A DNA stretch of 24,000 bases from an uncultured Actinomycetota bacterium (GCA_963790525.1 CAWBOV010000003.1:21279-45278), one strand, 5' to 3'; shown: positions 755 through 22,700, counted from the stretch's first letter. A program made the numbers and translations. Notes: generated by a model not told the origin, from the letters alone.

Positions 755-838
755 CCCTGCCCCGGGCGGAGCTGTCCGCGCGGACCTGTTGACAGGGCGC
801 CTACCGTGGCAGCATCCGGCGATGGGCAGATCGAAGGC

Positions 839-1177
839 ATGCACGAGCTGGCGATAACGCAGAGCATCGTCGACGCGGTGAGCGAGCGCGTCGGCGATAC
901 ACCGGTGTCGGTCGTGCGCATCCGGGTCGGCGCGTTGTCGGGCGTCTTCCCGCACGCGATGCAGTTCGCTTTCGAGGTCGTCACTGTGGGCACCGCGTTG
1001 GAGGGAGCCGAACTGGTGATCGACGAGCAGCCGGGCCTTGGACACTGCCGCGATTGCGGCCGCGATGTCTCGCTGCCCGATCTGATCCTGTTGTGCGACT
1101 GCGGCAGCGCGAACGTCCACGTCGTGTCCGGTCGCGAGCTGGCGATCGAGTCGATCGAGTCGGCTGCGGCGATCTAG
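839..1177 (+). CDS. hypA: [NiFe]-hydrogenase nickel-insertion metallochaperone HypA
   Basis: The N-terminal MHE nickel-binding motif (MHELAITQSIVD) sets the start at ATG 839 rather than the track start at 806. The zinc site CRDCG...x13...CDCGS is present. The TAG stop abuts the hypB ATG. Confidence 0.9.
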   Translation: MHELAITQSIVDAVSERVGDTPVSVVRIRVGALSGVFPHAMQFAFEVVTVGTALEGAELVIDEQPGLGHCRDCGRDVSLPDLILLCDCGSANVHVVSGRELAIESIESAAAI

Positions 1178-1984
1178 ATGTGCGCGACCTGCGGCTGCGG
1201 CGACGACGGCGACGTGCGCGTGACCACCGTCGATCGCCAGCACCAGGACGTTCACGCCGCCGGCCATCCCCACGAGCACGCGCATGAGCACGCGCATGAG
1301 CACCCGCACGAGCATCCGCGCACGGAACCGGCCCCGACTCGCACGCAGGTGCTCGAAGTCAACATCCTGGCCAAGAACGACGACCTCGCCGCGGCGAACC
1401 GCCGGTGGCTGGCCGGCCGGTCGATCACAGCCCTGAACCTGATGAGTTCACCGGGATCGGGCAAGACCACGTTGCTGGTGCGGACGCTGTCCGAGCTGGC
1501 GTCCGGGCGGGCGCTCGCCGTGATCGAGGGTGACCAGGAGACGCTGCTGGACGCCGGTCGCATCAGTGCGACCGGAGCGCCCGTGGTGCAGGTCAACACC
1601 GGAGCCGGCTGTCATCTGGACGCCGAGATGATGAGATCCGCGCTCGATCAGCTGGCGCCGGAGGACGCGTCGATCGTGTTCGTCGAGAACGTCGGCAACC
1701 TCGTCTGCCCTGCCCTGTTCGACCTGGGTGAGGCGGCGAAGGTCGTGGTGATCTCGGTGACCGAGGGCACGGACAAGCCGCTGAAGTATCCGCAGATGTT
1801 CGCCGGCGCCGACCTGATGATCGTGAACAAGGTGGACCTGTTGCCCTACGTGGACTTCGACGTGGACGCCTGCGTGCGATTCGCCCGTCAGGTGAATCCC
1901 GAGCTGCACGCCATTGCGGTGTCGGCGACTACGGGCGAGGGCATGGCCCGGTGGTACGACTGGATCGACCGTGTTGCCTCTTGA
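1178..1984 (+). CDS. hypB: [NiFe]-hydrogenase nickel-incorporation GTPase HypB with a His-rich N-terminal tract
   Basis: The N-terminus MCATCGCG carries the CxxCGC high-affinity Ni motif. A His/Glu tract HPHEHAHEHAHEHPHEHP at 1265-1318 is encoded by direct CACGCGCATGAG repeats. The P-loop SPGSGKTTLL, ENVGNLVCPA and NKVDL G-motifs are all present. Confidence 0.93.
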   Translation: MCATCGCGDDGDVRVTTVDRQHQDVHAAGHPHEHAHEHAHEHPHEHPRTEPAPTRTQVLEVNILAKNDDLAAANRRWLAGRSITALNLMSSPGSGKTTLLVRTLSELASGRALAVIEGDQETLLDAGRISATGAPVVQVNTGAGCHLDAEMMRSALDQLAPEDASIVFVENVGNLVCPALFDLGEAAKVVVISVTEGTDKPLKYPQMFAGADLMIVNKVDLLPYVDFDVDACVRFARQVNPELHAIAVSATTGEGMARWYDWIDRVAS

Positions 1985-2045: not shown

Positions 2046-2124
2046 CGGTAGGTAGGGCCGCAGGGTGGATCGGGCGCCGAGCCGCAGGCGACTTCATATC
2101 CGCTTGGGCGAAAAGGCGGTCGCG

Positions 2125-3180
2125 ATGCCTTCTGATGCTGCGATCAAAGCAGAGGAAACCCTCATTCATGTGCTCTGGATCAATGCCGGGCTCAGCTGCG
2201 ACGGTGACTCGGTCGCGCTCACCGCGGCCACCCAACCGTCCATCGAAGAGATCGCGCTGGGCGCCCTGCCGGGGCTGCCGAAGATCGCGGTGCATTGGCC
2301 ACTGATCGACTTCGAGTGCGGCCCGACCGGGGGCGCCGACGACTTCCTGGAATGGTTCTTCAAGGCCGACCGAGGCGAACTCGAGCCCTTCGTGCTCGTC
2401 GTCGAGGGCTCGATACCCAACGAGGCGCTGCACGAGGAGGGCTACTGGTGCGGGTTCGGCAACGACCCGGCCACCGGTCAGCCCATGACGACCAGCGAGT
2501 GGCTCGATCGGCTCGCCCCGAAGGCGACGGCCATCATCGCCGCGGGCACGTGCGCGACCTACGGTGGAATCCATGCCATGGCCGGTAATCCGACAGGGGC
2601 GATGGGGGTACCGGACTACCTGGGTTGGGACTGGAAGTCGAAGGCCGGCATCCCGATCGTCTGCGTGCCGGGATGCCCGGTGCAGCCGGACAATCTCTCC
2701 GAGACGATCACGTACCTGCTGTACATGGCCACCGGCCAGGCGCCGATGATCCCGCTGGACAACGCGCTCCGTCCGAGCTGGCTGTTCGGCCAGACAGTGC
2801 ACGAGGGGTGCGACCGGGCCGGGTACTACGAGCAGGGTGACTTCGCGACCGAGTACGGCTCGCCGAAGTGCATCGTCAAGCTCGGCTGCTGGGGCCCGGT
2901 CGTGAAGTGCAACGTGCCCAAGCGCGGCTGGCTGAACGGCGTCGGCGGCTGCCCGAACGTCGGCGGGATCTGCATCGGCTGCACCATGCCCGGTTTCCCC
3001 GACAAGTTCATGCCGTTCATGGACGAGCCGCCCGGCAGCAAGGTGTCGGCCACGGCGTCGGGGGTGTACGGCAAGGCGGTCCGTAGCCTGCGCGCGATCA
3101 CGAACAAGACGCTCGACCAGGAACCGAAGTGGCGTGGCCGCGGAGCCGAACTGACCACCGGGGCGACCAGAACCTGGTAG
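2125..3180 (+). CDS. hhyS: [NiFe]-hydrogenase small subunit, group 1h/5 type (no Tat signal)
   Basis: MPSDAAIKAEETLIHVLWINAGLSCDGDSVALTAA..., followed by Fe-S ligand motifs GTCATYGG, CVPGCP, HEGCDR, KLGCWGPVVKCNVP and GGICIGCTMPGFPD. I chose ATG 2125 because the track start at 2065 adds an Arg-rich leader. No RRxFxK twin-arginine leader is present. Confidence 0.9.
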   Translation: MPSDAAIKAEETLIHVLWINAGLSCDGDSVALTAATQPSIEEIALGALPGLPKIAVHWPLIDFECGPTGGADDFLEWFFKADRGELEPFVLVVEGSIPNEALHEEGYWCGFGNDPATGQPMTTSEWLDRLAPKATAIIAAGTCATYGGIHAMAGNPTGAMGVPDYLGWDWKSKAGIPIVCVPGCPVQPDNLSETITYLLYMATGQAPMIPLDNALRPSWLFGQTVHEGCDRAGYYEQGDFATEYGSPKCIVKLGCWGPVVKCNVPKRGWLNGVGGCPNVGGICIGCTMPGFPDKFMPFMDEPPGSKVSATASGVYGKAVRSLRAITNKTLDQEPKWRGRGAELTTGATRTW

Positions 3181-3243: not shown

Positions 3244-5040
3244 ATGACCTCGACCCGCTCCCGCCCGAGCCACGCCAGCGCCGAGGGCTCGGATGGCCTC
3301 GTCGAGATGTCCTGGGATCCCATCACGCGGATCGTGGGCAGTCTCGGCATCTACACAAAGATCGACTTCAAGCAGCGGGTCGTCGCCGAGTGCCACAGCA
3401 CGTCCTCGATCTTCCGCGGGTACTCGATCTTCATGAAGGGCAAGGACCCCCGGGACGCGCACTTCATCACCAGCCGGATCTGCGGGATCTGTGGCGACAA
3501 CCACGCGACGTGCTCGTGCTACGCGCAGAACATGGCCTACGGCGTGAAGCCGCCGCCCATCGGCGAGTGGATCGTGAACCTGGGTGAAGCGGCCGAGTAC
3601 ATGTTCGACCACAACATCTTCCAGGAGAACCTCGTCGGCGTGGACTACTGCGAGAAGATGGTCTCCGAGACGAACCCCGGCGTGCTGGAGCTGGCCAACA
3701 ACACCGAAGCGCCGCATGTGGGCGACCACGGCTACCGGACCATCGGCGACATCATGCGCTCGCTGAATCCGTTCACCGGCGAGTTCTACCGCGAGGCGCT
3801 GCAGGTCAGCCGCTCGACGCGGGAGATGTTCTGCCTCATGGAGGGGCGTCACGTGCACCCGTCCACGCTCTACCCGGGCGGCGTCGGCACGGTCGCGACG
3901 ATCCAGTTGATGACCGACTACATCACCCGGCTGATGCGCTACGTCGAGTTCATGAAGAAGGTCGTGCCGATGCACGACGACCTGTTCGACTTCTTCTACC
4001 AGGCACTGCCGGGCTACGAGCAGGTCGGCCTGCGCCGCACGTTGCTGGCCTGCTGGGGCTCGTTCCAGGACCCCGACTACTGCAACTTCGACTACAAGGA
4101 CATGACCCAGTGGGGCCGCAAGATGTACGTCACGCCGGGCGTCGTGGTCGACGGAAAGCTCGTGACCACGGACCTGGTCGAGATCAACCTGGGCATCCGG
4201 ATCCTGCTCGGCAGCTCCTACTACGACGACTGGGACGGCCAGGAGATCTTCGTCAAGAACGACCCGCTGGGCAATCCGGTCGATCGGCGCCACCCGTGGA
4301 ACCAGCACACCAACCCGCGTCCGCAGAAGCGCGATCTGGACGAGAAGTACAGCTGGGTGATGTCACCGCGGTGGTTCGACGGCAAGGACTATCTCGCGCT
4401 CGACACCGGCGGTGGCCCGCTGGCTCGGCTGTGGTCGACGGCGCTCGCCGGACTGGTCGACATCGGGTACGTGCAGTCGACCGGCAGCAGCGTCAAGATC
4501 AACCTGCCGAAGACGGCGCTGAAGGGTCCGGTCGAGTTCGAGTGGAAGATCCCGCAGTGGAGTAACACGATCGAGCGCAACCGGGCGCGCACGTACTTCC
4601 AGGCGTACGCGGCCGCGTGTGCGCTGCACTTCGCGGAGAAGGCGCTCGTCGAGATCCGGGCCGGCCGCACGAAGACGTGGGAGAAGTTCGAGGTGCCGGA
4701 CGAGGGCATCGGCTGCGGCTTCACCGAGGCCGTCCGCGGCGTGCTGAGCCACCACATGGTGATCAGGGACGGCAAGATCGCGAACTACCACCCGTATCCA
4801 CCGACGCCGTGGAACGCCAACCCGCGCGACTCCTTCGGCACGCCGGGTCCCTACGAGGACGCGGTGCAGGGTCAGCCGATCTTCGAGGAGAACGACCGCG
4901 AGCACTTCAAGGGCATCGACATCATGCGGACCGTGCGCAGCTTCGATCCGTGCCTGCCGTGCGGCGTGCACATGTACCTCGGCGGGGGCGTGACCCTGGA
5001 GGCGCTGCATTCGCCCACGCAGTCCGTCACCGGCGAATGA
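3244..5040 (+). CDS. hhyL: [NiFe]-hydrogenase large subunit, group 1h/5 (high-affinity, actinobacterial type)
   Basis: 598 aa. RBS AGAGAGG is about 8 nt upstream. The N-terminal Ni-Fe ligand motif is TSRICGICGDNH (RICGICGDNH = 3475-3504). The C-terminal motif SFDPCLPCGVH is at 4939-4971, followed by a 22-aa tail (MYLGGGVTLEALHSPTQSVTGE) expected to be removed by the endopeptidase. These motif variants are diagnostic of group 1h/5. Confidence 0.95.
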   Translation: MTSTRSRPSHASAEGSDGLVEMSWDPITRIVGSLGIYTKIDFKQRVVAECHSTSSIFRGYSIFMKGKDPRDAHFITSRICGICGDNHATCSCYAQNMAYGVKPPPIGEWIVNLGEAAEYMFDHNIFQENLVGVDYCEKMVSETNPGVLELANNTEAPHVGDHGYRTIGDIMRSLNPFTGEFYREALQVSRSTREMFCLMEGRHVHPSTLYPGGVGTVATIQLMTDYITRLMRYVEFMKKVVPMHDDLFDFFYQALPGYEQVGLRRTLLACWGSFQDPDYCNFDYKDMTQWGRKMYVTPGVVVDGKLVTTDLVEINLGIRILLGSSYYDDWDGQEIFVKNDPLGNPVDRRHPWNQHTNPRPQKRDLDEKYSWVMSPRWFDGKDYLALDTGGGPLARLWSTALAGLVDIGYVQSTGSSVKINLPKTALKGPVEFEWKIPQWSNTIERNRARTYFQAYAAACALHFAEKALVEIRAGRTKTWEKFEVPDEGIGCGFTEAVRGVLSHHMVIRDGKIANYHPYPPTPWNANPRDSFGTPGPYEDAVQGQPIFEENDREHFKGIDIMRTVRSFDPCLPCGVHMYLGGGVTLEALHSPTQSVTGE

Positions 5041-6012
5041 CCATGCCCGGGCCCGCGACCGCGGCCGACCACGCAGGTCGACCGAGCCAGCCGGCCCAGG
5101 CTGATCAACTGCGAGCCGCGGGGGACCGCATCGAGTCGCTCATCGACGCGTGCGCGACCGGTGGCCCGTCCGCGCGCGCACGGGCCGAGGATCTCGTCGC
5201 GTCGGTGTCGACGCTCTACGGCGCCGGTCTCGGACGGCTGCTCGAGATCCTCGACGAGGCCGGCCGACTCGGGCCGTCCGTGCTCGACGCGCTCGCCGAC
5301 GACGAGCTCGTCTCCGGCCTGCTGCTGGTGCACGACCTGCACCCCTACGACGTCGACACCCGGATCGGGCGCGCGCTGGACAAGGTCCGGCCCTACCTGG
5401 GCACGCACGGCGGCGATGTCGAGCTGCTCGGCATCGACGACGAAGGGGTCGTGCGGCTGCGCCTGCTCGGCAGTTGCGACGGCTGCCCGTCCTCGTCGGT
5501 GACGTTGGAGCTGGCGGTGGAGGGTGCGGTGGCCGCGGCCGCGCCCGAGATGACGCGCATCGAGGTGACCGCAGGCGCGGCGACGAAGGCGCAGCCGGTG
5601 GGAGGCCTGATCACACCCGACTCGCTGCGGTCCCGCATCGACCGGCAGCCGGCGCGCGTCGGCCGACCTGGCGCGTCGCTGCCCGAGCTCGCGGAGCTGG
5701 CGCCGGGCCGACTGGCGGGCTTCGAGTTCGACGGCCTGACGCTCTGCGCCTGCCGCATCGGCAACGACTGTCTACTGTTTCCGCGACCGGTGCGGGCACT
5801 GCGGGCAGAGCCTGGCCGGCAGCGTGATCGAGCGGCGGCTCGGTGACGCGGTCGGTTCCGGCGTGCTGCGGTGCGCCCGCTGCCGTGCGCACTTCGACGT
5901 GCGTCGCGCCGGTGTCGGTCTGGACGACGCCGAGGAGCACCTCGAACCGTTGCCCGTCCTCGTCCGCGACGGCGTCCTGTCCGTGGCGCTCCCGTCCCCA
6001 GCCGTGCCATGA
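5037..6012 (+). pseudogene. hhyE: HhyE-like putative Fe-S protein (NifU-like domain plus Rieske-type Cys/His domain), with the frame broken by one extra nt at about 5769
   Basis: ATG 5037 overlaps the hhyL stop (ATGA); ATG 5043 is an alternative start. Frame 0 gives the NifU-C-like sequence GGDVELLGIDDEGVVRLRLLGSCDGCPSSSVTLE. After ...LCACRIGND the track frame degenerates and stops at 5846. Frame +1 from 5770 instead reads VYCFRDRCGHCGQSLAGS...VLRCARCRAHFDV (C-x-H ... C-x2-H) through to TGA 6010-6012. Confidence 0.7.
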
Positions 6013-6675
6013 GTACCCCGCCGCTGTTCGTCCTGCGGCGCATCGCGCAACGCCCGCCGCCACCTCCGGCCGGCGAGGTGTGCGAGATGTGCGGCGTCGC
6101 GATCGACGAGCACGAGCACGGGCATGTGGTCGACCGGGCGAGCCGATCGCTGATGTGCACCTGCCGCCCGTGCTACCTGCTGTTCACCGCCGAAGGGGCG
6201 GAGCTGCGCTTCCGGGCCGTGCCCGATCGCTACCTCTCCTTCCCCGACTTCCAGCTCGGTCCGGGGCAGTGGGATCAGCTCGAGATCCCGGTCGGGCTGG
6301 CGTTCTTCTTCCACAACTCGACGATGCAGCGGATGGTCGCCTTCTACCCGGGTCCGGCCGGCGCCACCGAGTCCGAACTTCCCTTGGATGCGTGGAGCAC
6401 GGTCACCGCGCAGAATCCCGCAGCTGCGGCTGCTGACCCCCGACGTCGAAGCCCTGCTCGTGCGCACCCCGACCGCGGCAGCGGCGAGGTGAGTTGTCAT
6501 CTCGTCCCGATCGACGTCTGTTACGAGCTGGTCGGCGGGCTGCGCTCGGTGTGGCGGGGTTTCGACGGCGGGCGTGAGGCGCAGCGACCGCATCGACGGG
6601 TTCTTCCGGAAGGTCGCCGAGCGCAGCCGTCCGGCGCCCTCCGTCCTCGCGATGCAGGACGAGGTGGCCCGATGA
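6009..6675 (+). pseudogene. Conserved hydrogenase-cluster protein of unknown function with a Cys-rich N-terminus (recalled as the DUF5947 family, unverified); three frame breaks
   Basis: ATG 6009 overlaps the hhyE stop (ATGA). MSTPPLFVLRRIAQ...CEMCGVAIDEHEHGHVVDRASRSLMCTCRPCYLLF... GC3 and peptide coherence show frame 0 to 6419, an extra nt at about 6420 and frame 1 for QLRLLTPDVEALLVRTP. A 1-nt loss at about 6470 returns to frame 0 for DRGSGEVSCHLVPIDVCYELVGGLRSVWRGFDGGREAQ. An extra c at 6585 then gives frame 1 for DRIDGFFRKVAERSRPAPSVLAMQDEVAR, ending at TGA 6673-6675, which overlaps the next ATG. Confidence 0.6.
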
Positions 6676-7315
6676 CCGCGCTCAGCTTCGCCGTGGCGGA
6701 CGTGTTCGCCGAGCCGTACGCCGTCGCGCCGCAGCTCACCGCCCGCCTGCGCATCGAGGAGTCGACCGGCGCGACGATCCACGCGATCGCGCTGCGCGCC
6801 CAGGTGCGCATCGAACCGCAGCGCCGGCCCTACAGCGCGGACGAGGAGAGCGCTGCTGCTCGACATCTTCGGAACGCGTGACCGGTGGTACGACACGCTG
6901 AAGCCGTTCATGTGGATGCAGGCCGGCGCGATGGTGCAGGGGTTCACCGGCATCACCGAGGTCGACCTGGCATTGCCGTGCACCTATGACTTCGACGTCG
7001 ACCGCGTCGAAGTACCTGCACGCGCTGCGCGACGGCGCGGTCAGCGTGGTGCTCCTGTTCTCCGGGACGGTGTTCATCCGGGGCGAGCGTGGGTTCGGCG
7101 TCGAGCAGGTGCCATGGGATCGCGAAGCCCGCTACGAGATGCCGATCACGGTGTGGCGCGACCTGATCGACCGGTACTTCCCGGGTACCGGCTGGCTGCG
7201 CCTCGATCGCGACCTGATCGAGGCACTGGCGCGCCACAAGGCCGACCACGGCCTCATCTCCTGGGACGAGACGGTGCGGGCGCTGCTGGCCGAGGCGGAC
7301 AGGACGCGGACGTGA
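6672..7315 (+). pseudogene. Conserved hydrogenase-cluster protein of unknown function (recalled as the DUF6084 family, unverified); two frame breaks
   Basis: ATG 6672 (ATGA overlap). Frame 0 reads MTALSFAVADVFAEPYAVAPQLTARLRIEESTGATIHAIALRAQVRIEPQRRPYSADEE. An extra a at 6849 leads to frame 1, ALLLDIFGTRDRWYDTLKPFMWMQAGAMVQGFTGITEVDLALPCTYDFDV. An extra nt at about 7000 leads to frame 2, TASKYLHALRDGAVSVVLLFSGTVFIRGERGFGVEQVPWDREARYEMPITVWRDLIDRYFPGTGWLRLDRDLIEAL...DRTRT, ending at TGA 7313-7315. Confidence 0.6.
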
Positions 7316-8699
7316 AGCCCGCCCCGAGCGCGGCCGAGTACGCCCGTACGGTCGCGGATGCCGTGCTCTACGAGGGGTACCTGCTCTATCCCTACCGGGC
7401 CAGCTCCGGCAAGAACCGGTCCCGCTGGCAGTTCGGCGTGCTCGGTCCGACCGGGGCGGCGTTGTCGGGTCACGGCGAGGACTCCTCGCTGGCATCGCAG
7501 TTCCTGGTGCGCGCACCCGATCCCGCGTCGGCCGCCATCACGCTCGAGCTGCGATTCCTCCACCTGCAGAAGCGCAGCGCCCAGCTGGCCGGAGCGGACG
7601 GCCGGTTCGTCGAGGTCAGCGAGTTGGTGGCCGGCGAGCAGCGCTGGCTGACCTGGGAAGAGGCCGCCGCGCACGAGCATCTCGTGCGGACCGTGGTCGC
7701 TGGCGGCACTGGCCGAGGGCCGGACCGAGCCGATCGAGGTCGCCGCCGGAGCGGAGACGGAGCCGAACCCCGGCAGCACCCCCGCGGCCCGGTTGGTGCG
7801 CAGCCGCCGCCGGCTGCAGGCCGAGCTGGATGTCCGAGCCGAGCCGGTCGGCGGCGACCTCGTCCGCATCTCGATGCAGCGTCACCAACACCACGCCGGA
7901 CGCGGCCGGTGACCACGCTGCGGCGACCGCCGCGTCGTTCCTCGGCGCCCACCTGCTGGTCGAGGTCGAGCACGCCGAGGCACTGTCGATGACCGATCCT
8001 CCCGAGGACGCAGTCGACGCGGCCGGTCGGTGCATCCAGCACCGCTGCTGGCCCGTGCTGGCCGGGCCGGCCGATGACACGTCGCTGGTGCTGGTGTCGC
8101 CGATCATCCTGTACGACCACCCCGAGATCGCCGAGCAGAGCGCCGGTGCGCTGTTCGACTCGACCGAGATCGACGAGATCCTGACCCTGCGGGTGATGAC
8201 CCTGACCGACGAGGAGAAGGCCGCCGCCCGTGCCACCGATCCGCGGGCCGCCGAGATCATCGACCGGTGCGATGCGATGTCGCCGGACGCCATGGCGCAG
8301 CTGCACGGGATCCTCCGCGATCCGCATGCCCTGACCGATGCCGTCGATCCGGCCGGCTCGTTCGGGTTCGACGCCGAGGTGCCCTGGTGGGATCCAGCCG
8401 TCGACGCGAGCGTCTCGCCCGAGACGGACGAGGTCATCGTCGGCGGGGTGGCGGTGTCGGCCGGCAGCATCGTCCGGATCCATCCGTCACGGCGCGCGGA
8501 TGCGCAGGATCTCTTCTTCACCGATCAGGTCGCCCGGGTCGTGGCGGTCCAGTCCGACGTGGACGGCGACACCCACGTCGCTGTGGTTCTTCTCGACGAT
8601 CCGGCCGCCGACCTGCACGAGTGGTACGGCCGGTACCTGTACTTCGCCCCCGACGAACTCGAACCGATGCACGACAACCGAGAGGAGAGCCGATCGTGA
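7312..8699 (+). pseudogene. Conserved hydrogenase-cluster protein of unknown function (about 460 aa); two frame breaks
   Basis: GTG 7312 overlaps the preceding stop (GTGA). Frame 1 reads VKPAPSAAEYARTVADAVLYEGYLLYPYRASSGKNRSRWQFGVLGP...WLTWEEAAAHEHLVRTV. An extra nt at about 7696 leads to frame 2, SLAALAEGRTEPIEVAAGAETEPNPGSTPAARLVRSRRRLQAELDVRAEPVGGDLVRISMQ. An extra c at 7880 leads to frame 0, VTNTTPDAAGDH...ILYDHPEIAEQSAGALFDSTEIDEILTLRVMTLTDEEK...YLYFAPDELEPMHDNREESRS, ending at TGA 8697-8699. Confidence 0.55.
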
Positions 8700-8815
8700 G
8701 AACCGTAGGAATCGCCGCCACCGTACTGGCCGTGGCGGCGGTCGCCGGTGCGGTGGCGCTGGGTGTCACGTCGATACCGGACATCAAGCGCTACCTCAAG
8801 ATGCGCGCGATGTAG
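8696..8815 (+). CDS. Tiny (39-aa) single-pass membrane protein, in a conserved position before the endopeptidase gene
   Basis: GTG 8696 overlaps the preceding stop (GTGA). VRTVGIAATVLAVAAVAGAVALGVTSIPDIKRYLKMRAM has one hydrophobic helix and a basic tail. It is embedded in a longer Arg-rich track ORF (8267..8815) whose upstream part is the shadow of the previous gene. Confidence 0.45.
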   Translation: MRTVGIAATVLAVAAVAGAVALGVTSIPDIKRYLKMRAM

Positions 8816-8829
8816 GAGGACGGCAGCCC

Positions 8830-9360
8830 ATGACCGACCGCGTACTGGTCGCCGGGATCGGAAACATCTTCTTCACCGACGATGGATTCGGCCCAGCGGT
8901 CGTCGAAGCATTGCTCAGCGATGCTGCCCGATGGCCGTTTCCGGCGCCGGTGCGGGTGGTCGACTACGGCATCCGTGGCATGCACCTGAGCTACGACCTC
9001 CTGGCCGGAGTGGGGGCGCTCGTCCTCGTCGATGCGGTGCCGCCCGGGACCGGGCAGACGGCCGTGCCCGGCGCGCTCGTCACGCTGCGGATCGGCCCGC
9101 GCGACATCGCCCACGCACCTGCCGACGTCGACGCGCACAGCATGTCGCCGGTCGCAGTGCTCGCCGGCCTCGCCCCGATGGGTGGCGAAGTCCCGACCAC
9201 GTACCTCGTCGGCTGCATCCCGGCGGACGTGTCCGACGGAATGGGCCTGAGCGAAGCGGTCCGGGCTGCCGTGGCACCGGCGGCCGACCTCGTCCACGAC
9301 CTGGTCGGCCGGTTGCTCATGGAGCGGGAATCAGCCGAACCGATGGCGGCGGGTGGTTGA
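8830..9360 (+). CDS. hupD: [NiFe]-hydrogenase maturation endopeptidase (HupD/HyaD/HybD family)
   Basis: MTDRVLVAGIGNIFFTDDGFGPAVVEAL...VRVVDYGIRGMHLSYDLL...LVLVDAV...DAHSMSPVAVL matches the family's GxGN..xxDDGxG, D and H metal-ligand pattern. The start is internal to track ORF 8338..9360. Confidence 0.85.
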   Translation: MTDRVLVAGIGNIFFTDDGFGPAVVEALLSDAARWPFPAPVRVVDYGIRGMHLSYDLLAGVGALVLVDAVPPGTGQTAVPGALVTLRIGPRDIAHAPADVDAHSMSPVAVLAGLAPMGGEVPTTYLVGCIPADVSDGMGLSEAVRAAVAPAADLVHDLVGRLLMERESAEPMAAGG

Positions 9361-9361
9361 C

Positions 9362-9591
9362 GTGTGTCTCGGAATTCCCGGCCAGGTGGTCGCACGGGTC
9401 GAGGGCTACGGCGATCAACTCGTCCTCGTCGACGTGGTGGGCGCCCAACGACAGATCAACATCGGCATGCTCGACGACGGCGACCAGGCCGCGCTGGCGG
9501 TCGGTGACTGGGTTCTGATCCACATGGGCTTCGCCGTCGAGCGGGTCGACGAGGCCGGGGCGGCGACGGCGATGGCCGGGCTGGAGCTGAT
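9362..9591 (+). CDS. hypC: HypC/HupF-type hydrogenase assembly chaperone (copy 1); no in-frame stop as sequenced, so it reads into hypF
   Basis: GTG 9362 followed by TGT gives the obligatory (M)CLGIPGQVV N-terminus. ...GDWVLIHMGFAVERVDEAGAATAMAGLEL is typical HypC. The nominal end is set at the TGATG motif (9589-9593). The TGA there is one base out of frame with hypC. Confidence 0.75.
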
Positions 9592-11896
9592 GGGACAGGC
9601 GCGCGAGACGCGTGCACGCCGGCGCTTCCGGGTGCACGGGGTCGTCCAGGGCGTGGGTTTCCGGCCGTTCGTCTACGTGACCGCCACCGAGCTGGAACTG
9701 ACCGGGTCGGTGGCCAACGACGCGGCCGGCGTGAGCATCGAGGTCGAGGGCGAGCCGGCGGCGCTGGCCGAGTTCGCCCGCCGGCTCGAGCGGGATCCGC
9801 CGCCGCTCGCGATGGTCGAATCCGTCGAGTCGACCGAGCTCGAGGTGCTCGGGGGGACCGGGTTCGTCATCGAGGGCAGCCGGCCGGATGACCGGGCGCG
9901 CACCCTGGCCTCGCCGGACGTCGCCACGTGTGCCGACTGCCTGAGCGGAGTTCGCCGATCCGTGGCGACCGCCGGTACCGCCACCCGTTCATCACCTGCA
10001 CCAACTGCGGCCCGCGCTTCACGATCATCACCGAGCTGCCTTACGACCGGGCGGCCACGACGATGGCCGACTTCGCCCTGTGCGACGCCTGCAGGGCCGA
10101 GTACGCGGACCCGGCGGACCGGCGCTTCCACGCCCAGCCGATCGGCTGCCACGACTGCGGTCCGGTACTGGAGTTCCGCGACCGGCACGGCGGCACCGCG
10201 ACGGGTCCCGCGGCGCTGCGGACCGCGCGCGCCGCGTTGCGTGCGGGCGCGATCGTCGCCGTGAAGGGACTCGGCGGTTACCACCTGGCCTGCGACGCCG
10301 GCGACGACCTGCGGTGACCGAGCTGCGGCGCCGCAAGGGCCGCGGTCGGCAAGCCGTTCGCCCTCATGGTCGCCGACCTGGCCGTGGCCCGTGAGCTCGT
10401 GGAGATCGACGACGGAGGAGCAGGCGCTGCTGACCGGCGCTCGGCGGCCGATCGTCCTGCTGGCCCGGCGCCCCGAGGCCGCCGGGCCGGTGGCCGCGTC
10501 GGTGGCCCCGGGCACCCCGGATCTCGGGCTGATGCTGCCCTACACGCCGTTGCACCACCTGCTGTTCGGACTCGACGGTGATGACGCCGGACCGCGGGTG
10601 CTCGTGATGACCTCGGGCAACCTCGGCGGGGAACCGATCGTCACCGACGACGAGGACGCGGTGTCACGCCTGGCGGAACTGGCCGACGGCTGGCTATGGC
10701 ACGACCGGCCGATCGAGGTGCCGTGCGACGACTCGGTCGTGCGCATCGTCGACGGGGCGGAGATGGCGGTCCGGCGCTCCCGCGGTTACGCGCCCCTGCC
10801 GATCGCGCTGCCGTTCCCGGTCGCCCCGCTCCTCGCGGTCGGCGCCGACCTGAAGAGCACCTGCTGCGTGGCCGAAGGGCGCTACGCGTGGCTCAGCCAG
10901 CACGTCGGTGACATGGACGACCTGGCGACCCTGGATGCGTTCACGCACGCGGAACTGCACCTGGAGATGCTCACCGGTGTGACGCCCGAGCGCGTGGTCG
11001 CCGACGCGCCATCCGGGCTACCGCTCGAGCCGTCTGGGCACGGAGCCACGCCGCTGGACGGCCGGTCGAGACCGTCCAGCACCATCACGCCCACATCGCG
11101 TCGGTGATGGCCGAACACGGACTGGACGGCAGCGCCCCGGTCATCGGCATTGCCTTCGACGGGACGGGGTACGGCGACGACGGCGCGGTCTGGGGCGGTG
11201 AAGTGCTCGTCGCCGACTACAAGCAGTACCGCCGAGCGACCCACCTCGCCTACGTGCCGCTGGCCGGCGGCGATGCGAGCGTCGAACGTCCGTACCGGAT
11301 GGCGCTGTCGCACCTGCGAGCGGCCGGCATCGAGTGGGCCGACGACCTGCCGTGCGTCGCCGCCTGCCCGGCCGCGGAGCGCGACGTGCTGGGCCACCAG
11401 TTCGAGACCGGCTTCGGCTGCACGCCGACCTCGAGCATGGGCCGGCTCTTCGACGCGGTCGCCTCCGTGCTCGGAGTCCGTCAGCGCGTCGACTACGAAG
11501 CGCAGGCCGCGATCGAGCTGGAGGGTCTGGCCCGCTCCGCTGGCGCCGTGCAGCGGCTACCGGTTCGGTACGGATCCCGCCGGCTACGTCGACGCTTCCC
11601 CCGTTCTCCGCGCGCTCGTGCGCGACCAGCGCACCGGGGTCGCTACGGGCGAGATCGCGGGGCGCTTCCACCAGGGCGTCGCCGACCTGATCGCCGAGGT
11701 CGCCGTGCGTGAACGCGCGAACACCGGTATCGGCACCGTCGTGCTGGGCGGCGGCGTCTTCCAGAACGTGGTGCTGCTGTCGAGCGCGCGCCGGCTGCTG
11801 CGTGACGCCGGGTTCGCCGTGCTGGTGCCGTCGCGGCTGCCGCCGAACGACGGCGGTCTGGCGCTGGGACAACTCATGATCGCCGCGACGAGGTAG
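9590..11896 (+). pseudogene. hypF: Carbamoyltransferase HypF (CN-ligand synthesis), frame broken at about 8 single-nt indels
   Basis: Acylphosphatase domain: MGQARETRARRRFRVHGVVQGVGFRPFVY. Zn fingers: CADCLS|EFADP|[22 protein letters not shown]...[28 protein letters not shown]. YrdC-like region: [23 protein letters not shown]|GKPFALMVAD...EIDD|EEQALLTGARRPIVLL. Kae1-like region: HPGYRSS|VWARSHAAGRPVETVQHHHAHIASVMAEHG...GGGVFQN...PPNDGGLALGQ. Frame switches lie at 9947(+1), 9963(+1), about 10309(-1), 10347(+1), 10414(+1), 11009(+1), 11031(+1) and about 11548(+1). The stop is TAG 11894-11896. Confidence 0.88.
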
Positions 11897-11906
11897 GGAG
11901 ACTCTC

Positions 11907-12214
11907 ATGTGCCTTGCGGTTCCCGGGCAGATCATCAGCATCGCCGAGCGCGACGACACGCTGATGGCCGACGTCGACTTCGGGGGAGTGACCAAGGACG
12001 TCTGCCTGGCCTACATCCCCGATGCGGTCGTGGGGGAGTACGTCGTCGTCCACGTCGGCTTCGCCATCCAGCGACTGGACGAACGTTCGGCCCGGGAGAC
12101 GCTCGCGAACTTCGAGAAACTCGGCATCCTGACCGAGGAGTTCGGGGACGGCTTCGAGCTGGCGGCCAGGCAGGCCGGCATCACCGAGCAGGCACACACG
12201 GGAGAGGACCCCCG

Positions 12215-12218
<4 letters not shown>
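11907..12218 (+). CDS. hypC: HypC/HupF-type hydrogenase assembly chaperone (copy 2)
   Basis: RBS GGGAG at 11897-11901. [14 protein letters not shown]...[24 protein letters not shown]. The stop overlaps the hypD start (ATGA, 12215-12218). Confidence 0.9.
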
Positions 12219-13316
<1,098 letters not shown>

Positions 13317-13324
<8 letters not shown>

Positions 13325-14423
13325 TCCGCTGCTGGCCGAGCCGCGCGAGGCGGCCGACGACCCGGAGGCCGCGACGATAGACCTGGACACCTGGGTGTGC
13401 CCGGCTCCGCTGCGCGAATCGCCCGTCATCGTCATGGGACACGGTGGCGGCGGGGCGATGTCGGCCGAGCTGATCGAGCACCTGTTCCTGCCGGCCTTCG
13501 GCAGCGCCGCTGACGCGCACCTCGCCGACTCCGCCGTCGTCGAGATCGGCGGGGTGCGGCTCGCGTTCTCCACCGACTCGTTCGTGGTCAAGCCGATGTT
13601 CTTCCCCGGCGGCTCGATCGGTGACCTGGCCGTCAACGGCACGGTCAACGATCTTGCGATGGTCGGCGCGATGCCCTTGGTCCTGTCGACCGCCTTCATC
13701 CTCGAAGAGGGGACGCCGCTCGCGGAGCTGGGTCAGGTGGCCGAGGCGCTCGGCGCGGCCGCACGGCTGGCCGGCGTCAAGCTCGTCACCGGTGACACGA
13801 AGGTCGTCGACAGTGGCAGCGGCGACGGCGTGTACATCAACACCGCCGGCATCGGTCTCGTGGCCGAGGGCGTCGACATCCGGCCCGAACGGGCGTCGGC
13901 GGGCGACGTGGTGATCATCAGTGGTCAGATCGGGGTGCACGGGATCGCGGTCATGAGCTGCCGTGAGGGACTGTCCTTCGGCACCGCTGTCTCCAGCGAT
14001 TGCGCCGCCGTGCACGGGTTGGTCGCCGCGATGATCGCCACCGGCGCCGACATCCACACCCTGCGCGACCCGACCCGCGGCGGCGTCGCGGCGTCGCTGA
14101 ACGAGATCGCCCAGGCCGCCGGCGTCGGTATCACCCTGGACGAGAGGGACCTGCCGATCCCGCAGGCGGTGCGCGATGCCTGCGGGCTGCTCGGGCTCGA
14201 CCCGCTCTACGTGGCCAACGAGGGCAAGCTGCTCGCGATCGTCGCGCGGGAGGATGCCGACACGGTGCTCGCGGCCATGCGAGCGCACGAACTGGGGCGC
14301 GACGCGCTGGTGATCGGCGAGTGCGAGGCGCAGCACCCGGGCCTGCTCACGGCGCGTACCGCACTCGGCGGTACCCGGGTCGTCTCGCTGCCGATCGGTG
14401 AACAGCTGCCGCGGATCTGCTGA
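13317..14423 (+). CDS. hypE: Hydrogenase maturation carbamoyl dehydratase HypE
   Basis: 368 aa with a PurM-like fold signature ([43 protein letters not shown]). The diagnostic C-terminal PRIC motif is present. There is an 8-nt overlap with hypD. Confidence 0.93.
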
Positions 14424-14436
14424 TGGGCCGGGGCTG

Positions 14437-15162
14437 ATGGGTTCGCCGGGCGCGATCATGTTCGCGCGCTACGCCTACCCACCCAACGTCCTCGGCTACT
14501 GCGGCCCCGATGACGCGTCCACGCTGTTGAGCCGGGACGCCCCCGACACGGACGCGCGCATCGCCCGGCACGCTCGCGAGTTCGAGGGCGCGTGGACCTA
14601 CCTGGCGCTGATCGCAGCGTCCGCCGGGATCGCCGACCCGCTCGACGAACGCGTCGTCGAGGCCTACTGGGTCGGCAACGAGCTGCTCGACGAGATCGAC
14701 CAGGGCGCGATGCTGGACGAGCTCCGGCGGCGTTTCGTCGGCCAGAACGATGCCGGCTGGATCCCGGGGCCACCGCACCACGGCTTCCACGTCTTCACGA
14801 TCTACCCCTGGGTGAGGCTGCTGCGCCGGGACGCCAATCGCTCGGTGGCCGTGTCCGTGCTGGAGCAGTGCCGCATCCGCTGGGGCCGGGTACTCGCCGT
14901 CGAGGGCGAGCGGGTCCGGGTGCTGACGCACCCACTCGTCTTCGCCGACGGCGTGCTCCGACTCGGGCCCGCTCGGGAACAGACAGCGGCCTGGTCGATC
15001 GACGGGGTGTCGGTGCTGCCCTCGCTCGCCGTCGGCGATCACGTCGCACTGCACTGGGACTGGGTGTGCGACGTCCTCGATGATCGGCAGCGCAAGGAAC
15101 TCGAAGCCCGCAACGACGAGCAGCTCGCCGCGACCAATCTCGCTCTGCGCGCCGATCGGTGA
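14437..15162 (+). CDS. Conserved protein of unknown function that follows hypE in group 1h loci (recalled as DUF6390, unverified)
   Basis: MGSPGAIMFARYAYPPNVLGYCGPDD...VVEAYWVGNELLDEID...HHGFHVFTIYPWVRLL...ALHWDWVCDVLDDRQ. Codon bias is coherent. Possible starts are 14437 or 14458; the track start at 14398 overlaps hypE. Confidence 0.55.
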   Translation: MGSPGAIMFARYAYPPNVLGYCGPDDASTLLSRDAPDTDARIARHAREFEGAWTYLALIAASAGIADPLDERVVEAYWVGNELLDEIDQGAMLDELRRRFVGQNDAGWIPGPPHHGFHVFTIYPWVRLLRRDANRSVAVSVLEQCRIRWGRVLAVEGERVRVLTHPLVFADGVLRLGPAREQTAAWSIDGVSVLPSLAVGDHVALHWDWVCDVLDDRQRKELEARNDEQLAATNLALRADR

Positions 15163-15218
15163 CGCCTACAGCGAGCGAGTGCCTCTCCGGTCCTGGTGAC
15201 CGGCACCCGGCCTGACCG

Positions 15219-16031
15219 TCACCGGGACGCGTCGCTCTCCTTCTGCGCCCAAGCCTCGATGTGTCGGGGGCCCGCGTAGATCGTGGTGGGGTCTGCGGCG
15301 AAGGCGGCGAGCGTCGCCACGGCGGCGTCCACCTCTTGGCGGGTGGCGACGCCGGCATCGATCATGGCGTCCGCGCTCTCCTGCAGCGTCAGTACCGGAA
15401 TCTGCTTGGTCGGGCCGTCCCGCAACAGCCGTTGCGTCACGTGCACGCTCGGCAGCGGCAGCCCTGCTTCGACGAACAGCCGGACGAGCTTGCGCCCGAG
15501 CGTCGCATCGCCGCCGTGGTGGCCCACCACCGCGGAGTACCGCTCGCGCCAGAAGTCGAACCCGTCGTTCGCGGGGTAGCAGAAGGCGCCGTCGAAGTCG
15601 GCGTCGTCCACGGCGAGACGGCCGCCCGGCCGCAGCGCCGTCCACATGCGGCGGAGCACCTCGGCGGGCCGCGCCAGGTGGTGGAGCAGGAGCCGGCTGT
15701 AGGCGAAGTCGAACCTCTCGCTCGCGACGAGGTCGTACGCGTCGCACACCGCGAACTCGATGTTCGTCAGGCCCGCTGCGTCCGCCCTTCGCCGTGCAAC
15801 CGCGAGAGCCTCGGGGTCCCGATCGAGGGCGAGCACGCTTCCGGACCGGCCGACCCGACCTGCCAGGCTGACCGACACCGCGCCCGAACCGCAGCCGAGA
15901 TCGAGGCAGTCAGCGCCCTCCTGGAGGCCCGCCCGATCCCAGAAGGCCGATATGGCGTCACTGTCGGCCTCGGCGAGCAACGCCAGCCGGTCAGCACCCG
16001 GTTCGCCGCCTCGAAGCACATAGCGCTCCAC
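15219..16031 (-). CDS. Class I SAM-dependent methyltransferase
   Basis: 270 aa with a GTG start. SAM motif I is CLDLGCGSGAVS, the post-I acidic residue is in VLALDRD, and motif II/III is PGGRLAV. It lies downstream of the ClC gene on the same strand (44-bp gap). Confidence 0.8.
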   Translation of the reverse strand: MERYVLRGGEPGADRLALLAEADSDAISAFWDRAGLQEGADCLDLGCGSGAVSVSLAGRVGRSGSVLALDRDPEALAVARRRADAAGLTNIEFAVCDAYDLVASERFDFAYSRLLLHHLARPAEVLRRMWTALRPGGRLAVDDADFDGAFCYPANDGFDFWRERYSAVVGHHGGDATLGRKLVRLFVEAGLPLPSVHVTQRLLRDGPTKQIPVLTLQESADAMIDAGVATRQEVDAAVATLAAFAADPTTIYAGPRHIEAWAQKESDASR

Positions 16032-16075
16032 GCGCAGAGCCTATGCCTGCGCGTCGATTCCCGCGTCCAGTCGGG

Positions 16076-17902: not shown

Positions 17903-17933
17903 TGCAGTATGCAACAATTGCTACAGCATGCAA
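17901..17933. promoter_or_regulatory. Palindrome-rich AT-rich operator candidate between the ClC gene and the divergent marR
   Basis: TTGCA-GTA-TGCAA (17902-17914, perfect 5-bp arms), CAATTG (17915-17920) and TTGCtacaGCATGCAA (17918-17933) lie in the lowest-GC stretch of the window. The segment overlaps the ClC start-codon candidates and sits just upstream of the marR RBS. Confidence 0.4.
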
Positions 17934-19714: not shown

Positions 19715-22700
19715 ATGCGAGCGAGCACCTGGCACGATGCTGTCGAGGCATCCGCGATGGCCGGTCGGCCATCGCGATTCTCGTGGCACCCGGGGCTACG
19801 TTCCGCTCGGCGACGTCGCCTGGCCATGGTGACGATCCTCGGGCTGCTCGCCGGCATGCTGGTCGGCGGTTCGAACGCGATCGTCGGGCACGTGGCCACC
19901 GCGAGCGCGGCGACGACGCCGAGTTGCGTCAACACGCTGTACTCGGTCGACTGGTTCACGGGCACTGTCAACCAGATCGCGCTTCCGAACGGCAGCGCGA
20001 GCGGCGCCGCCGTGAGTTCTGTGGTCGGCGACCTCGGCGTGGACGAGCCCTTCGCCCGCTACAACGCACTGGCGCTCACGACGGACGGCACGACCCTGTT
20101 CGCCGCGGACCAGTCCTCGGGTACCGGTGACTACATCTACCGCATGGATGTGGCGACGGGGACCGTGACGGCGTACCCCAACGCGCAGTCCGGCATCGTG
20201 GGGTCGCTCATCGGTGGCGCGATCGATCCCGTGAACGGGCTGTACTACCTGCTCACCTTCGGCACGACGCCCACCCTCTACGCCTTCGACACCACCACGA
20301 ACACGTGGATCGGCAAGGTCGGGTCGTTCCCCGGGACAGCGGCAGGGATGAATGGTCAGAACATCTCCGACATCGCGTTCGACGCCAACGGAACGATGTT
20401 CTTCACCGCCAACACGACGTCCAACGGCCACTCGCTCTACCGCGTGAGCGGCCCGGTCCCCGCCACGGCAGGATCGGCGACGCTCACGCCGGCGCTGGTG
20501 TCGGCCGATCTGTTGCCGAACGACAACGAGATCGGCTCGTTGGCCTTCGGATCGACGGGTGACCTGTACCTCGGCCAGATCGCATCACCCCAGATACAAG
20601 AGCTGAACCCTGCGAACGGCGCGGTGGTCTCACAGTCCAGTGGTACCCCGATCCCCGGTAATCCGTCCGACTTCGCCTCCTGCGCGCAACCGTCGACCTT
20701 GACCGTGGTCAAGGACGTCGTGAACCGGACGAACAGCTCCGACGAATTCACCCTGGGCATCGGCGGCCTGGACACCCCCGCAACAGCCACCACGACCGGC
20801 ACGGCGACCGGCCTGCAGAGCGCCGCCGCCGGCCCGGTCGTCGTGAGCCCGGGCGTCGCCTACCCCGTCTCGGAATCCGGCGCGGGAAGCACCGACCTCA
20901 GCACGTATTCGGCGAGCTACCAGTGCGTCGATTCCGACAACAACGTGCTGGCATCCGGTGCGGCCACGTCGTTCGACTACACGGCGCCACCACCGGTCGA
21001 CGGGCACGGTGTCGCGGCAACCTGCACCTTCACGAATACGCCGCTCCCGCGCAGTTACACGGTGAAGAAGACCTCGTCGGCCGCGACCGCCCTTCCCGGT
21101 GACGTCGTCACCTATTCGGTGAAGGTGACCAACACGGGCCCGGTCGCCTACACCGCGGCCGACCCGGCGTCGTTCACCGACGACCTGTCCGCCGTCCTCG
21201 ACGACGCGACCTACAACGGCGACGCGTCCGGCGGCGCGACCGTCTCGGGATCCACCCTGTCGTGGTCGGGCGCTCTGGGCGTCGGCCAGACGATCACAGT
21301 CACGTACTCGGTGACGGTCAAGGACCCTGATACGGGCAACCGGACGTTGACCAACACGGTCACGCCGACCGGTCCAGGCGGCTCCTGCGTCTCCACCGCG
21401 GATTGCACCACCACGACCACCGTCCCCGGCCCCACCTACACGGTCGCCAAGAGCGCGTCGGCGAATACGGCGCAGCCCGGCGATGTCGTCACTTACTCGG
21501 TGGCGGTGAAGAACACCGGTCAGGTGGCCTACACGGCGGCCGACCCTGCGTCGTTCACCGACGACCTGTCCGCCGTCCTCGACGACGCGACCTACAACGG
21601 CGACGCCAGCAACGGGGCGACGGTCAGCGGCACCACCCTGTCCTGGTCGGGCGCCCTCGCCGTCGGGCAGACGGTGACCGTCACCTACTCGGTCACCGTG
21701 AAGAACCCCGATACCGGCGACAGGACGCTGACCAACGCCGTGGTGCCGACCGGGCCGGGCGGCACGTGCGCGACCCCGGGCGGCTGCACCACCACGACGA
21801 CCGTGCCGACGACCGGTTACACGGTCGCCAAGTCCGCCTCGGTCACCTCGGCGCAGCCCGGGGCCACGGTGACCTACACCGTGGCGGTCACCAACACCGG
21901 CCAGACCGCCTACACCGCCGCGAAGCCCGCCTCGTTCACCGACGACCTGTCCGCCGTCCTGGACGACGCCACCTACAACGGCGACGCCACCAACGGCGCC
22001 ACGGTCAGCGGGAACACGCTGTCCTGGTCGGGCGCCCTCGCGGTCGGGGCCACGGTGACAATCACCTACTCGGTCACCGTGAACGATCCCGATACCGGCG
22101 ACCACACCCTGACGAACGTGGTGGTGCCGACCGGCCCCGGCGGCTCCTGCGCCACGCCCGCCGGCTGCACCACGACCACCCCCGTGGCCTCGTTCACGGT
22201 CGCCAAGACCGCCTCCGCTGCCAGCGTCCTGCCCGGCGGAACCCTCACCTACTCGGTCGCCGTGAAGAACACCGGCGAGGTCGCCTACACCGGAGCGAAC
22301 CCGGCCTCGTTCACCGACGACCTGTCCGCCGTCCTGGACGACGCCACCTACAACGGCGACGCCGACCATGGCGCCACCGTCACCGGCCACACGCTGTCCT
22401 GGTCCGGCGCCCTCGCGGTCGGGGGAACGGTGACGATCACGTACTCGGTCACGGTCGCCAGCCCCGACACCGGCGATCATCTGCTGACGAACGCCGTGGT
22501 GCCGACGGGCCCGGGTGGCGGCTGTGTCAGCGCGGCCGGCTGCACGACCACCACCCCGGTCGCGTCGTACACCGTCGCGAAGACGGCCTCGGTGAACTCG
22601 GCGATGCCCGGCGACACCGTCACCTACACCGTGACCGCCGTGAACACCGGCCAGGTCGCCTACACGCAGGCCACTCCGGCGACCTTCACCGACGACCTCT

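Follow-up and report, generated by a model that had tools for sequence, protein, structure and literature searches.

The closest described system to the locus examined here is the Hhy [NiFe]-hydrogenase cluster of Mycobacterium smegmatis (MSMEG_2722-2718), where a gene for a NifU-like protein comes after hhyS and hhyL, with conserved hypothetical genes and the hyp maturation genes further downstream. The NifU-like protein, HhyE, carries a NifU-like domain and two C-terminal CxxC motifs, and it is needed for Hhy activity in M. smegmatis (PMC6883350). For genes interrupted by frameshifts, two known situations are comparable. One is the decay of bacterial pseudogenes during reductive genome evolution, where several frame-disrupting mutations may be found in adjacent genes; indels in bacteria are usually deletion-biased, of mixed sizes and located in slippage contexts. 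The other is the consensus error of long-read assemblies, and Nanopore errors are usually described as biased toward homopolymers and deletions. The Microflora Danica (MFD) long-read MAGs, in which one-base frameshifts split genes into fragment ORFs and are concentrated in certain assemblies, were assembled with metaFlye --nano-hq and polished once with Medaka (PMC12313526). Their description deals chiefly with low coverage and long homopolymers in low-GC archaea and does not take up clustered non-homopolymer insertions in high-GC actinobacteria (PMC12313526).

In our study, a window of 24,000 nucleotides (GCA_963790525.1, CAWBOV010000003.1:21279-45278) from an uncultured high-GC actinobacterium was analysed. 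The source is one unannotated contig of 961 kb, which is consistent with a long-read assembly, and no near-identical public genome was found for it; HypE, HypB, and HypC2 each formed a singleton cluster at 90% identity. The window contained hypAB, hhySL, hhyE, genes for DUF5947, DUF6084, a protein of 461 amino acids, DUF6893, and a protease, followed by hypC-hypF and hypCDE. This cluster is syntenic with loci of Mycobacterium, Nocardia, Streptomyces, and Knoellia; in contrast to the M. smegmatis cluster, it has hypC and hypF joined into a single ORF, an arrangement also found in some Streptomyces. Our reading, with a probability of about 0.9, is that the window carries an ordinary and complete group-1h-type (Hhy) hydrogenase cluster and that the 16 indels in it would be errors of the consensus. 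The features are as follows.

806..1177, + strand: hypA, intact; Pfam HypA matched over positions 1-111 of 112
1178..1984, + strand: hypB, intact; CobW/HypB domain (Pfam)
2065..3180, + strand: hhyS, [NiFe]-hydrogenase small subunit, intact; Pfam/NCBIfam matches
3244..5040, + strand: hhyL, [NiFe]-hydrogenase large subunit, intact; Pfam/NCBIfam matches
5037..6012, + strand: hhyE-like gene; one extra base at 5769 (5768 or 5769)
6009..6675, + strand: DUF5947 gene; two extra bases, at about 6417 and about 6585, and between them one missing at about 6472 (6466-6475)
6672..7315, + strand: DUF6084 gene; extra bases at 6855 and 7000
7312..8699, + strand: conserved 461-aa gene; extra bases at about 7678 and about 7880
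8696..8815, + strand: DUF6893 small membrane peptide (Pfam), intact, between the patches
8830..9360, + strand: HycI-like maturation protease (Pfam), intact, between the patches
9353..11896, + strand: hypC-hypF fusion; extra bases at 9944, 9963, 10347, about 10414, 11009, about 11034, and about 11545; missing base at about 10309
11907..12218, + strand: hypC2, intact
12215..13324, + strand: hypD, intact
13317..14423, + strand: hypE, intact
14398..15162, + strand: DUF6390 gene, intact
5769..7880, + strand: probable error patch 1, with 8 single-base events over 2.1 kb
9944..11545, + strand: probable error patch 2, with 8 single-base events over 1.6 kb, each of them within hypF

Genes for the small and the large [NiFe] subunit were present, and an HhyE-type protein was encoded downstream of hhyL. 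The HhyE association, together with the synteny with mycobacterial, Streptomyces, and Nocardia loci, points to group 1h. Both hhyS and hhyL aligned in a single frame to at least 14 orthologues, with 84-95% identity and no frameshift. The small subunit matched the Pfam families NiFe_hyd_SSU_C and Oxidored_q6; the large subunit matched the NCBIfam nickel-dependent hydrogenase large subunit model below its equivalog cut-off, and its cluster mates in a protein-cluster look-up bore the same name. The hhyE-like product contained a Pfam NifU match at residues 111-176, and its corrected C-terminus contained the motifs CGHC and CARC, the event at 5769 separating the NifU-like part from the CxxC part. 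After correction, the DUF5947 protein matched positions 2-176 of 177 of its Pfam family and the DUF6084 protein positions 1-211 of 213. The product of the 461-aa gene had no match in Pfam or NCBIfam profile searches, and the gene was found in synteny in all related loci. The corrected HypC-HypF matched TIGR00143 over positions 2-740 of 741 with 759 bits (cut-off 466), whereas the raw fragments reached 86, 182, and 54 bits.

Orthologous proteins from 14 loci were aligned to the DNA of the window with a purpose-written, frameshift-tolerant protein-to-DNA aligner, the false-positive rate of which was about 1 event per 420 kb on the same operon in isolates and other MAGs. This alignment revealed 16 single-base events, comprising 14 insertions and 2 deletions. 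The first patch contained +5769, +6417, -6472, +6585, +6855, +7000, +7678, and +7880, and the second patch +9944, +9963, -10309, +10347, +10414, +11009, +11034, and +11545; conserved residues adjoined all 16 events on either side in the orthologue alignments. When the 14 extra bases were removed and the 2 gaps were padded, hhyE, the DUF5947, DUF6084, and 461-aa genes, and hypC-hypF were each restored as a single ORF, with the stop/start overlaps ATGA at 5037, 6009, and 6672 and GTGA at 7312 and 8696. The corrected path contained no in-frame stop, and the broken genes contained no deletion larger than 1 bp. An earlier note on this DNA had placed 16 frame switches from GC3 and peptide coherence, with the overlaps from 6009 onward, and had reported neither premature stops in the correct frames nor large deletions. 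All of this was recovered here; each sign was correct and the positions lay 0-18 nt from ours. Its count of 16-17 indels, mostly +1, was borne out at 16, and the suspected 17th fell away.

Orthologue alignments switched frame at 16 of the 17 sites that had been listed. The exception was the switch suspected just before 9589, which was rejected because HypC and HypF form a natural fusion there; the two proteins are encoded in one uninterrupted ORF in five other loci as well (L002, L027, L065, L068, and L080). Additional aligner calls at 1126-1177, 5036-5087, 6569, 7275-7323, 8820, 9589-9615, and 11890-11901 were located at gene boundaries and were not counted as events, since they arose where stop-to-stop query segments enter the neighbouring gene or where the loci have separate hypC and hypF. 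The calls +1165 and +1177 at hypA/hypB were boundary artefacts of such query segments.

A net shift of +1 or -1 at each site and perfectly conserved corrected frames are also what recoding would give, in which case programmed ribosomal frameshifting or transcriptional slippage would keep the genes functional as written. However, the orthologues (14 to 80 loci) ran in a single frame at all 16 sites, and neither a conserved recoding site nor a two-frame arrangement was found in them; switches shared with orthologues had been named beforehand as evidence that would speak against sequencing error. The 16 sites were distributed over five genes in unrelated contexts with no common motif. To our knowledge, 16 motif-less sites in five genes are unlike any known recoding system, and we consider this explanation to have a negligible chance of being correct.

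The events were confined to the two patches. For 16 events placed uniformly over 14.4 kb, the probability that all of them land within 3.7 kb is about 4e-10, the patches having been defined post hoc. The first patch covers the final 240 nt of hhyE and breaks off midway through the 461-aa gene, the last 820 nt of which carry no event; the second stops 350 nt short of the hypF stop codon, and that remainder of hypF is likewise clean. The patch limits ignore gene boundaries, and the two clean stretches would already be non-functional if the indels were real. Within the cluster, hypA, hypB, hhyS, hhyL, the protease gene, hypC2, hypD, hypE, and the DUF6390 gene were unbroken; elsewhere in the window, the same was found for a methyltransferase, a CLC channel, a LacI regulator, and a repeat protein of more than 1266 codons. 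The intact flanks and the clean interval between the patches, as seen in the earlier note, thus hold, with no frameshift in the genes outside 5769-7880 and 9944-11545. The GC content of the patches (0.70-0.76) was only slightly higher than that of their intact neighbours (0.65-0.73) and did not discriminate them, and the insertion contexts showed no evident motif in common, for example a methylation site.

Real indels would mean a very recent loss of hhyE, the DUF5947, DUF6084, and 461-aa genes, and hypF, with hhyS, hhyL, and hypABCDE intact, i.e., an early stage of pseudogenisation. The frame-disrupting mutations are indeed present in the deposited sequence, all 16 of them, and fragments of the broken genes have been called as proteins from the contig. 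A pathway is also free to decay after the loss of one essential gene, and HhyE is required for Hhy activity in M. smegmatis (PMC6883350). Relaxed purifying selection was examined at residues invariant in at least 15 orthologues, in a leave-one-out comparison with intact orthologues. Within the patches, 1 of 342 invariant residues deviated in the corrected proteins, compared with 6 of 1192 elsewhere; for the intact orthologues, the same comparison gave 0-2%. With 3, 5, or 10 substitutions per real neutral indel, 9, 15, or 30 deviations would be expected, and the probability of finding at most one would be 1e-3, 4e-6, or 2e-12, respectively. Codon bias was not eroded either, as GC3 in the corrected frames was 0.907 in the patches against 0.899 outside. 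The window thus differs from known pseudogene decay: it carries no substitution load, its codon bias is kept, stops and deletions above 1 bp are absent, and the patch edges lie inside genes. Moreover, the downstream segments of the broken genes were untouched. The same holds for hhySL, hypD, and hypE, genes that the loss of HypF would make just as useless.

The spectrum of the events was also not that of bacterial decay, judged against general knowledge of bacterial indels. Insertions outnumbered deletions by 14:2 (binomial P = 0.004 vs 1:1), all events were of one base, and 11 of the 14 insertions were isolated bases outside homopolymers, as had been noticed before for most of them; three (6417, 10414, and 11009) could duplicate an adjacent identical base. 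We therefore consider real pseudogenisation improbable. The earlier supposition that real indels would leave hhyE and hypF dead beside intact hhyS/hhyL is right as to hhyS/hhyL; inactivation is unlikely, and it would also kill the DUF5947, DUF6084, and 461-aa genes. A localised mutational process, insertion-biased and independent of homopolymers, which would have hit five genes in two short tracts, sparing the structural genes and the remaining cluster, too recently for substitutions to follow, appears slightly more improbable still.

The same operon was compared in 80 loci, and only events with conserved peptide on the flanks were counted. The 24 Nanopore-only MFD MAGs (205.7 kb) yielded 18 insertions and 1 deletion, whereas 23 isolates contained no insertion and 1 deletion in 214.8 kb, and 33 other MAGs, taken as short-read from their contig names only (k127_, k141_, NODE_), contained no event in 204.8 kb. 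The difference between the Nanopore-only MAGs and the isolates plus other MAGs (1 event in 419.6 kb) was significant (P = 9e-9), and the signature therefore follows the sequencing and assembly technology. The insertion bias of the window and of the MFD loci (18:1 in the 24 loci) is an empirical finding of this count and is contrary to the textbook behaviour of Nanopore reads. The contexts of the MFD events were similar to those of the window, being often non-homopolymer, and the events clustered in single assemblies, with 10 in L041 and several in L061, two of these within hhyL. The density in the window, 16 events in 3.7 kb, greatly exceeded the MFD mean (0.9 per 10 kb) and was higher than in any MFD locus examined except L041, which came near it with 10 events in 10 kb.

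The absence of a decay signal, the 14:2 ratio, the non-homopolymer contexts, the mid-gene edges, and the Nanopore-only signature in relatives together point to assembly error and not to dead genes, in agreement with the preference for sequencing error over decay in the earlier note. Tests on the sequence, rather than observation of the reads, strongly support consensus error as the source of the events. The organism's own DNA would then be free of these mutations, and the 16 indels would belong to the deposited consensus only. Positions 5769-7880 and 9944-11545 would represent two patches poorly resolved by a long-read assembly, in which the consensus took up stray extra bases; the assembly would most probably be that of a metagenome sequenced by Nanopore only. 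The immediate cause may be low local coverage, mixed strains, or a failure of polishing.

One specific form of such an error is that the consensus of the patches was built from mixed close strains, or from cross-mapped hydrogenase-bearing actinobacteria, with both alleles written at polymorphic sites. For the majority of events, the removable base and the one beside it were two alternative third-position bases of one codon, and Hhy loci are highly conserved among co-occurring soil actinobacteria (HhyL was 86-95% identical across genera in the orthologue alignments). However, two thirds of random insertion slots adjoin a wobble position, so that 11-12 of 14 is not significant, and hhyL, the most conserved gene, was untouched in the window. 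We regard this form as possible but rather doubtful. The proposal that each insertion holds both alleles of a wobble SNP was dropped as unsupported, as the cases in two-fold codons showed no preference for synonymous partners.

Annotation of the raw sequence yields false pseudogene calls and chimeric ORFs at 5871..6881, 6910..7992, and 9353..10264, with GC3 of 0.71-0.82 compared with about 0.90 in the corrected frames; their description as frame chimeras in the earlier note was correct. The fragment ORFs should be annotated neither as proteins nor as pseudogenes. Two fragment proteins from here (7830..8699 and 10391..11107) have already entered a collection of 15 billion proteins, each as the representative of a singleton cluster. 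For this operon, clustered and insertion-biased frameshifts, often outside homopolymers, were found in Nanopore-only MAGs and essentially not in isolates or other MAGs. Metabolic inference from Nanopore-only MAGs should be frameshift-aware. The biological weight of the finding is small, as the corrected cluster would be a standard and complete hydrogenase of the high-affinity type. The organism should be scored as hydrogenase-competent and not as dead for hhyE and hypF.

The window DNA, with a G+C content of about 70%, was found to contain a tightly packed hydrogenase gene cluster on the + strand between 800 and 15,200. The genes were assigned by their matches to Pfam and NCBIfam models.

Genes of the hydrogenase cluster
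806..1177, +, hypA
1178..1984, +, hypB
2065..3180, +, hhyS
3244..5040, +, hhyL
5037..6012, +, NifU-like gene with two C-terminal CxxC motifs
6009..6675, +, DUF5947
6672..7315, +, DUF6084
7312..8699, +, conserved 461-aa gene of no family
8696..8815, +, DUF6893 peptide
8830..9360, +, HycI-like protease
9353..11896, +, hypC-hypF
11907..12218, +, second, free-standing hypC
12215..13324, +, hypD
13317..14423, +, hypE
14398..15162, +, DUF6390

The locus is a conventional Hhy-type (group-1h-like) hydrogenase cluster, and its gene order was kept in Mycobacterium, Nocardia, Streptomyces, Knoellia, and many actinobacterial MAGs. The gene at 5037..6012 had the same architecture, NifU plus two C-terminal CxxC motifs, as HhyE of M. 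smegmatis, a putative iron-sulfur protein whose gene lies downstream of those of the group 1h hydrogenase and which that enzyme needs for its activity (PMC6883350). The 461-aa protein (7312-8699) matched no Pfam or NCBIfam family and was strictly syntenic in all Hhy-type clusters examined; it is an uncharacterised accessory gene of these clusters. HypB (1178-1984) contained an N-terminal His-rich stretch (HEHAHEHAHEHPHEH), presumably a nickel-storage region. The nearest relatives, an Actinomycetota MAG (L002) and a Kribbellaceae MAG (L001), shared about 78-95% protein identity with the window. No near-identical public genome was found: in a collection of about 15 billion proteins clustered at 90% identity, HypE, HypB, and the second HypC were each the sole member of their cluster.

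In the GC3 frame plot, the coding phase shifted repeatedly between 5.7 and 11.6 kb, where stop-free segments held recognisable pieces of protein, each resuming in another frame. The orthologous proteins of 14 loci were aligned to the DNA with a purpose-written local protein-to-DNA aligner in which single-base gains and losses are permitted. Every orthologue query called one shared set of 16 events, whose positions varied by a few bases (+, extra base; -, missing base).

Single-base events from the frameshift-aware alignment (+ strand)
Patch 1: +5769, +6417, -6472, +6585, +6855, +7000, +7678, +7880
Patch 2: +9944, +9963, -10309, +10347, +10414, +11009, +11034, +11545

The two patches together contained 14 extra and two missing bases, and each event was directly adjoined on both sides by conserved residues. 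The 16 frame switches listed in the earlier note agreed in sign and lay within 0-18 nt of these positions. Additional frameshift calls in the window alignments were all at gene boundaries and were produced by stop-to-stop query segments. Recoding across the frame changes is excluded because the orthologues are single-frame.

Once the 14 bases were removed and the two gaps padded, five genes were again uninterrupted, with exactly the stop/start overlaps that had been proposed between the reconstructed genes. The family models, which are independent of the orthologues, agreed with the reconstruction. The stitched DUF5947 and DUF6084 proteins matched positions 2-176 of 177 and 1-211 of 213 of their Pfam models, respectively. 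The corrected HypC-HypF matched positions 2-740 of 741 of TIGR00143, the curated HypF equivalog, with 759 bits (cut-off 466), whereas the three raw ORF fragments scored 86, 182, and 54 bits (model positions 2-109, 259-452, and 647-740). The originally listed ORFs 5871..6881, 6910..7992, and 9353..10264 were chimeras, as had been claimed, joining pieces of different genes to out-of-frame sequence with a GC3 of only 0.71-0.82.

A 17th event, suspected before 9589, was rejected because HypC-HypF forms a single ORF, with a homologous linker, in five other loci (L002 and L027, and the Streptomyces isolate genomes L065, L068, and L080). In these loci, as in the window (9353-11896), a HypC domain was followed by a short linker and the HypF acylphosphatase domain. 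The two were separate genes in different frames in 51 other loci.

Every other gene of the window was unbroken, as the earlier note had held for the flanks. The hhyS, hhyL, protease, hypD, and hypE genes were in one frame against every orthologue; full-length Pfam matches were found for MarR, HypA, HypB, DUF6390, the methyltransferase, the CLC channel, and the LacI regulator. For 16 events scattered uniformly over 14.4 kb, the chance of all falling within 3.7 kb was about 4e-10, with the patches defined post hoc. An ORF of more than 1266 codons (~20201-24000, +) was stop-free from about 20.2 kb and continued past the window end. A 375-bp (125-aa) unit bearing a PGDxVTYTVTVTNTG-type motif was repeated about 7.6 times in tandem within it (21095-23997), and the product is probably a large repeat protein of the cell surface; two listed ORFs, 20630..23245 (-) and 21403..23070 (+), were off-frame shadows of this ORF. 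The intergenic stretch at 17880-17945, flanked by the CLC channel gene on the minus strand and a gene on the + strand, was AT-rich and contained repeated palindromic elements with TGCA (tgcaaccgtatccatcattgcagtatgcaacaattgctacagcatgcaaaa); it is possibly a divergent promoter or operator.

Signs of decay were examined in the corrected sequence. At columns with an identical residue in at least 15 orthologues, the window proteins deviated at 1/342 inside the patches and 6/1192 outside; intact orthologues deviated at 0-2%. Neutral indels accompanied by 3-10 substitutions each, ratios assumed from general knowledge of bacterial pseudogenes, would have given 9-30 deviations (P(<=1) 1e-3 to 2e-12). 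The GC3 of the corrected frame was 0.907 in the patches vs 0.899 outside, and no in-frame stop was found along the corrected path. All events were single-base, and the ratio of 14 insertions to two deletions departed from 1:1 (P = 0.004). Bacterial indels lean towards deletion, and natural frameshifts typically arise by slippage in runs; just three insertions (6417 in CCC, 10414 in GG, and 11009 in CC) could be repeats of a neighbouring base. Patch 1 started 240 nt short of the hhyE end and ended midway through the 461-aa gene, the last 820 nt of which were without events, though already useless if the frameshifts were real. Patch 2 was wholly within hypF and ended 350 nt ahead of the gene end, and hhySL, hypD, and hypE were untouched, though equally pointless without HypF. 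It is very improbable that the indels are real and the genes were inactivated very recently, which would need an unusual insertion-biased, homopolymer-independent mutational burst with no accompanying substitutions and no damage to the remaining cluster.

The strongest evidence on artefact versus decay was the technology control, in which gene-body frameshifts flanked by conserved peptide were counted in the same operon of all 80 fetched loci. The Nanopore-only Microflora Danica MAGs (24 loci, 205.7 aligned kb) contained 18 insertions and one deletion, the isolate genomes (23 loci, 214.8 kb) no insertions and one deletion, and other MAGs, grouped by MEGAHIT- or SPAdes-style contig names (33 loci, 204.8 kb), neither (P = 9e-9). 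For the Microflora Danica MAGs, assembly was by metaFlye (--nano-hq), followed by one Medaka polishing round (PMC12313526). The window comes from a single 961-kb contig, unannotated in NCBI and ENA, in keeping with a long-read origin of this kind. When the corrected window proteins were compared with 26 and then 80 other loci, essentially no gene-body events were found in isolates, and therefore the false-positive rate of the aligner is very low. Events were concentrated in single assemblies. Among the Nanopore-only MAGs, two loci carried clusters of +1 insertions: L041 (~5833-16349) contained 10 strict events from hhyL through hypE, and L061 (~5694-11717) contained two insertions 22 nt apart in the conserved ICGDNH/ATCSCY segment of HhyL and further events in hhyE, DUF6084, and hypF. 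The contexts resembled those of the window and were often non-homopolymer. In the 461-aa gene, two different Microflora Danica MAGs (L036:9580 and L041:9579) had an additional C at one and the same site (GGCAT[C]GGYGAGGA), the result of either a systematic error specific to that context or a real variant common to both.

Substitutions, GC3, spectrum, patch placement, and the technology control thus support sequencing error over decay, the reading preferred in the earlier note. With a probability of about 0.9, the indels mark no pseudogenes but errors of the consensus, made where a long-read assembly was poorly resolved over two stretches. The immediate cause may be shallow local coverage, a mixture of strains, or failed polishing; the writing of both alleles of wobble SNPs into the consensus was tested and was not significant. 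The indel storm belongs to a known class of artefact, consensus errors of long-read assemblies, and is not a biological feature. Clustered, insertion-biased frameshifts mark the Hhy operon in Nanopore-only MAGs and are absent from isolates and other MAGs. The 15-billion-protein collection contained the exact sequences of the fragments 7830-8699 and 10391-11107, each as the representative of a singleton cluster (P0019 and P0018); therefore, the assembly errors have already spread into protein databases. The chimeric ORFs of the window should be left unannotated, and the organism should be scored as hydrogenase-competent.
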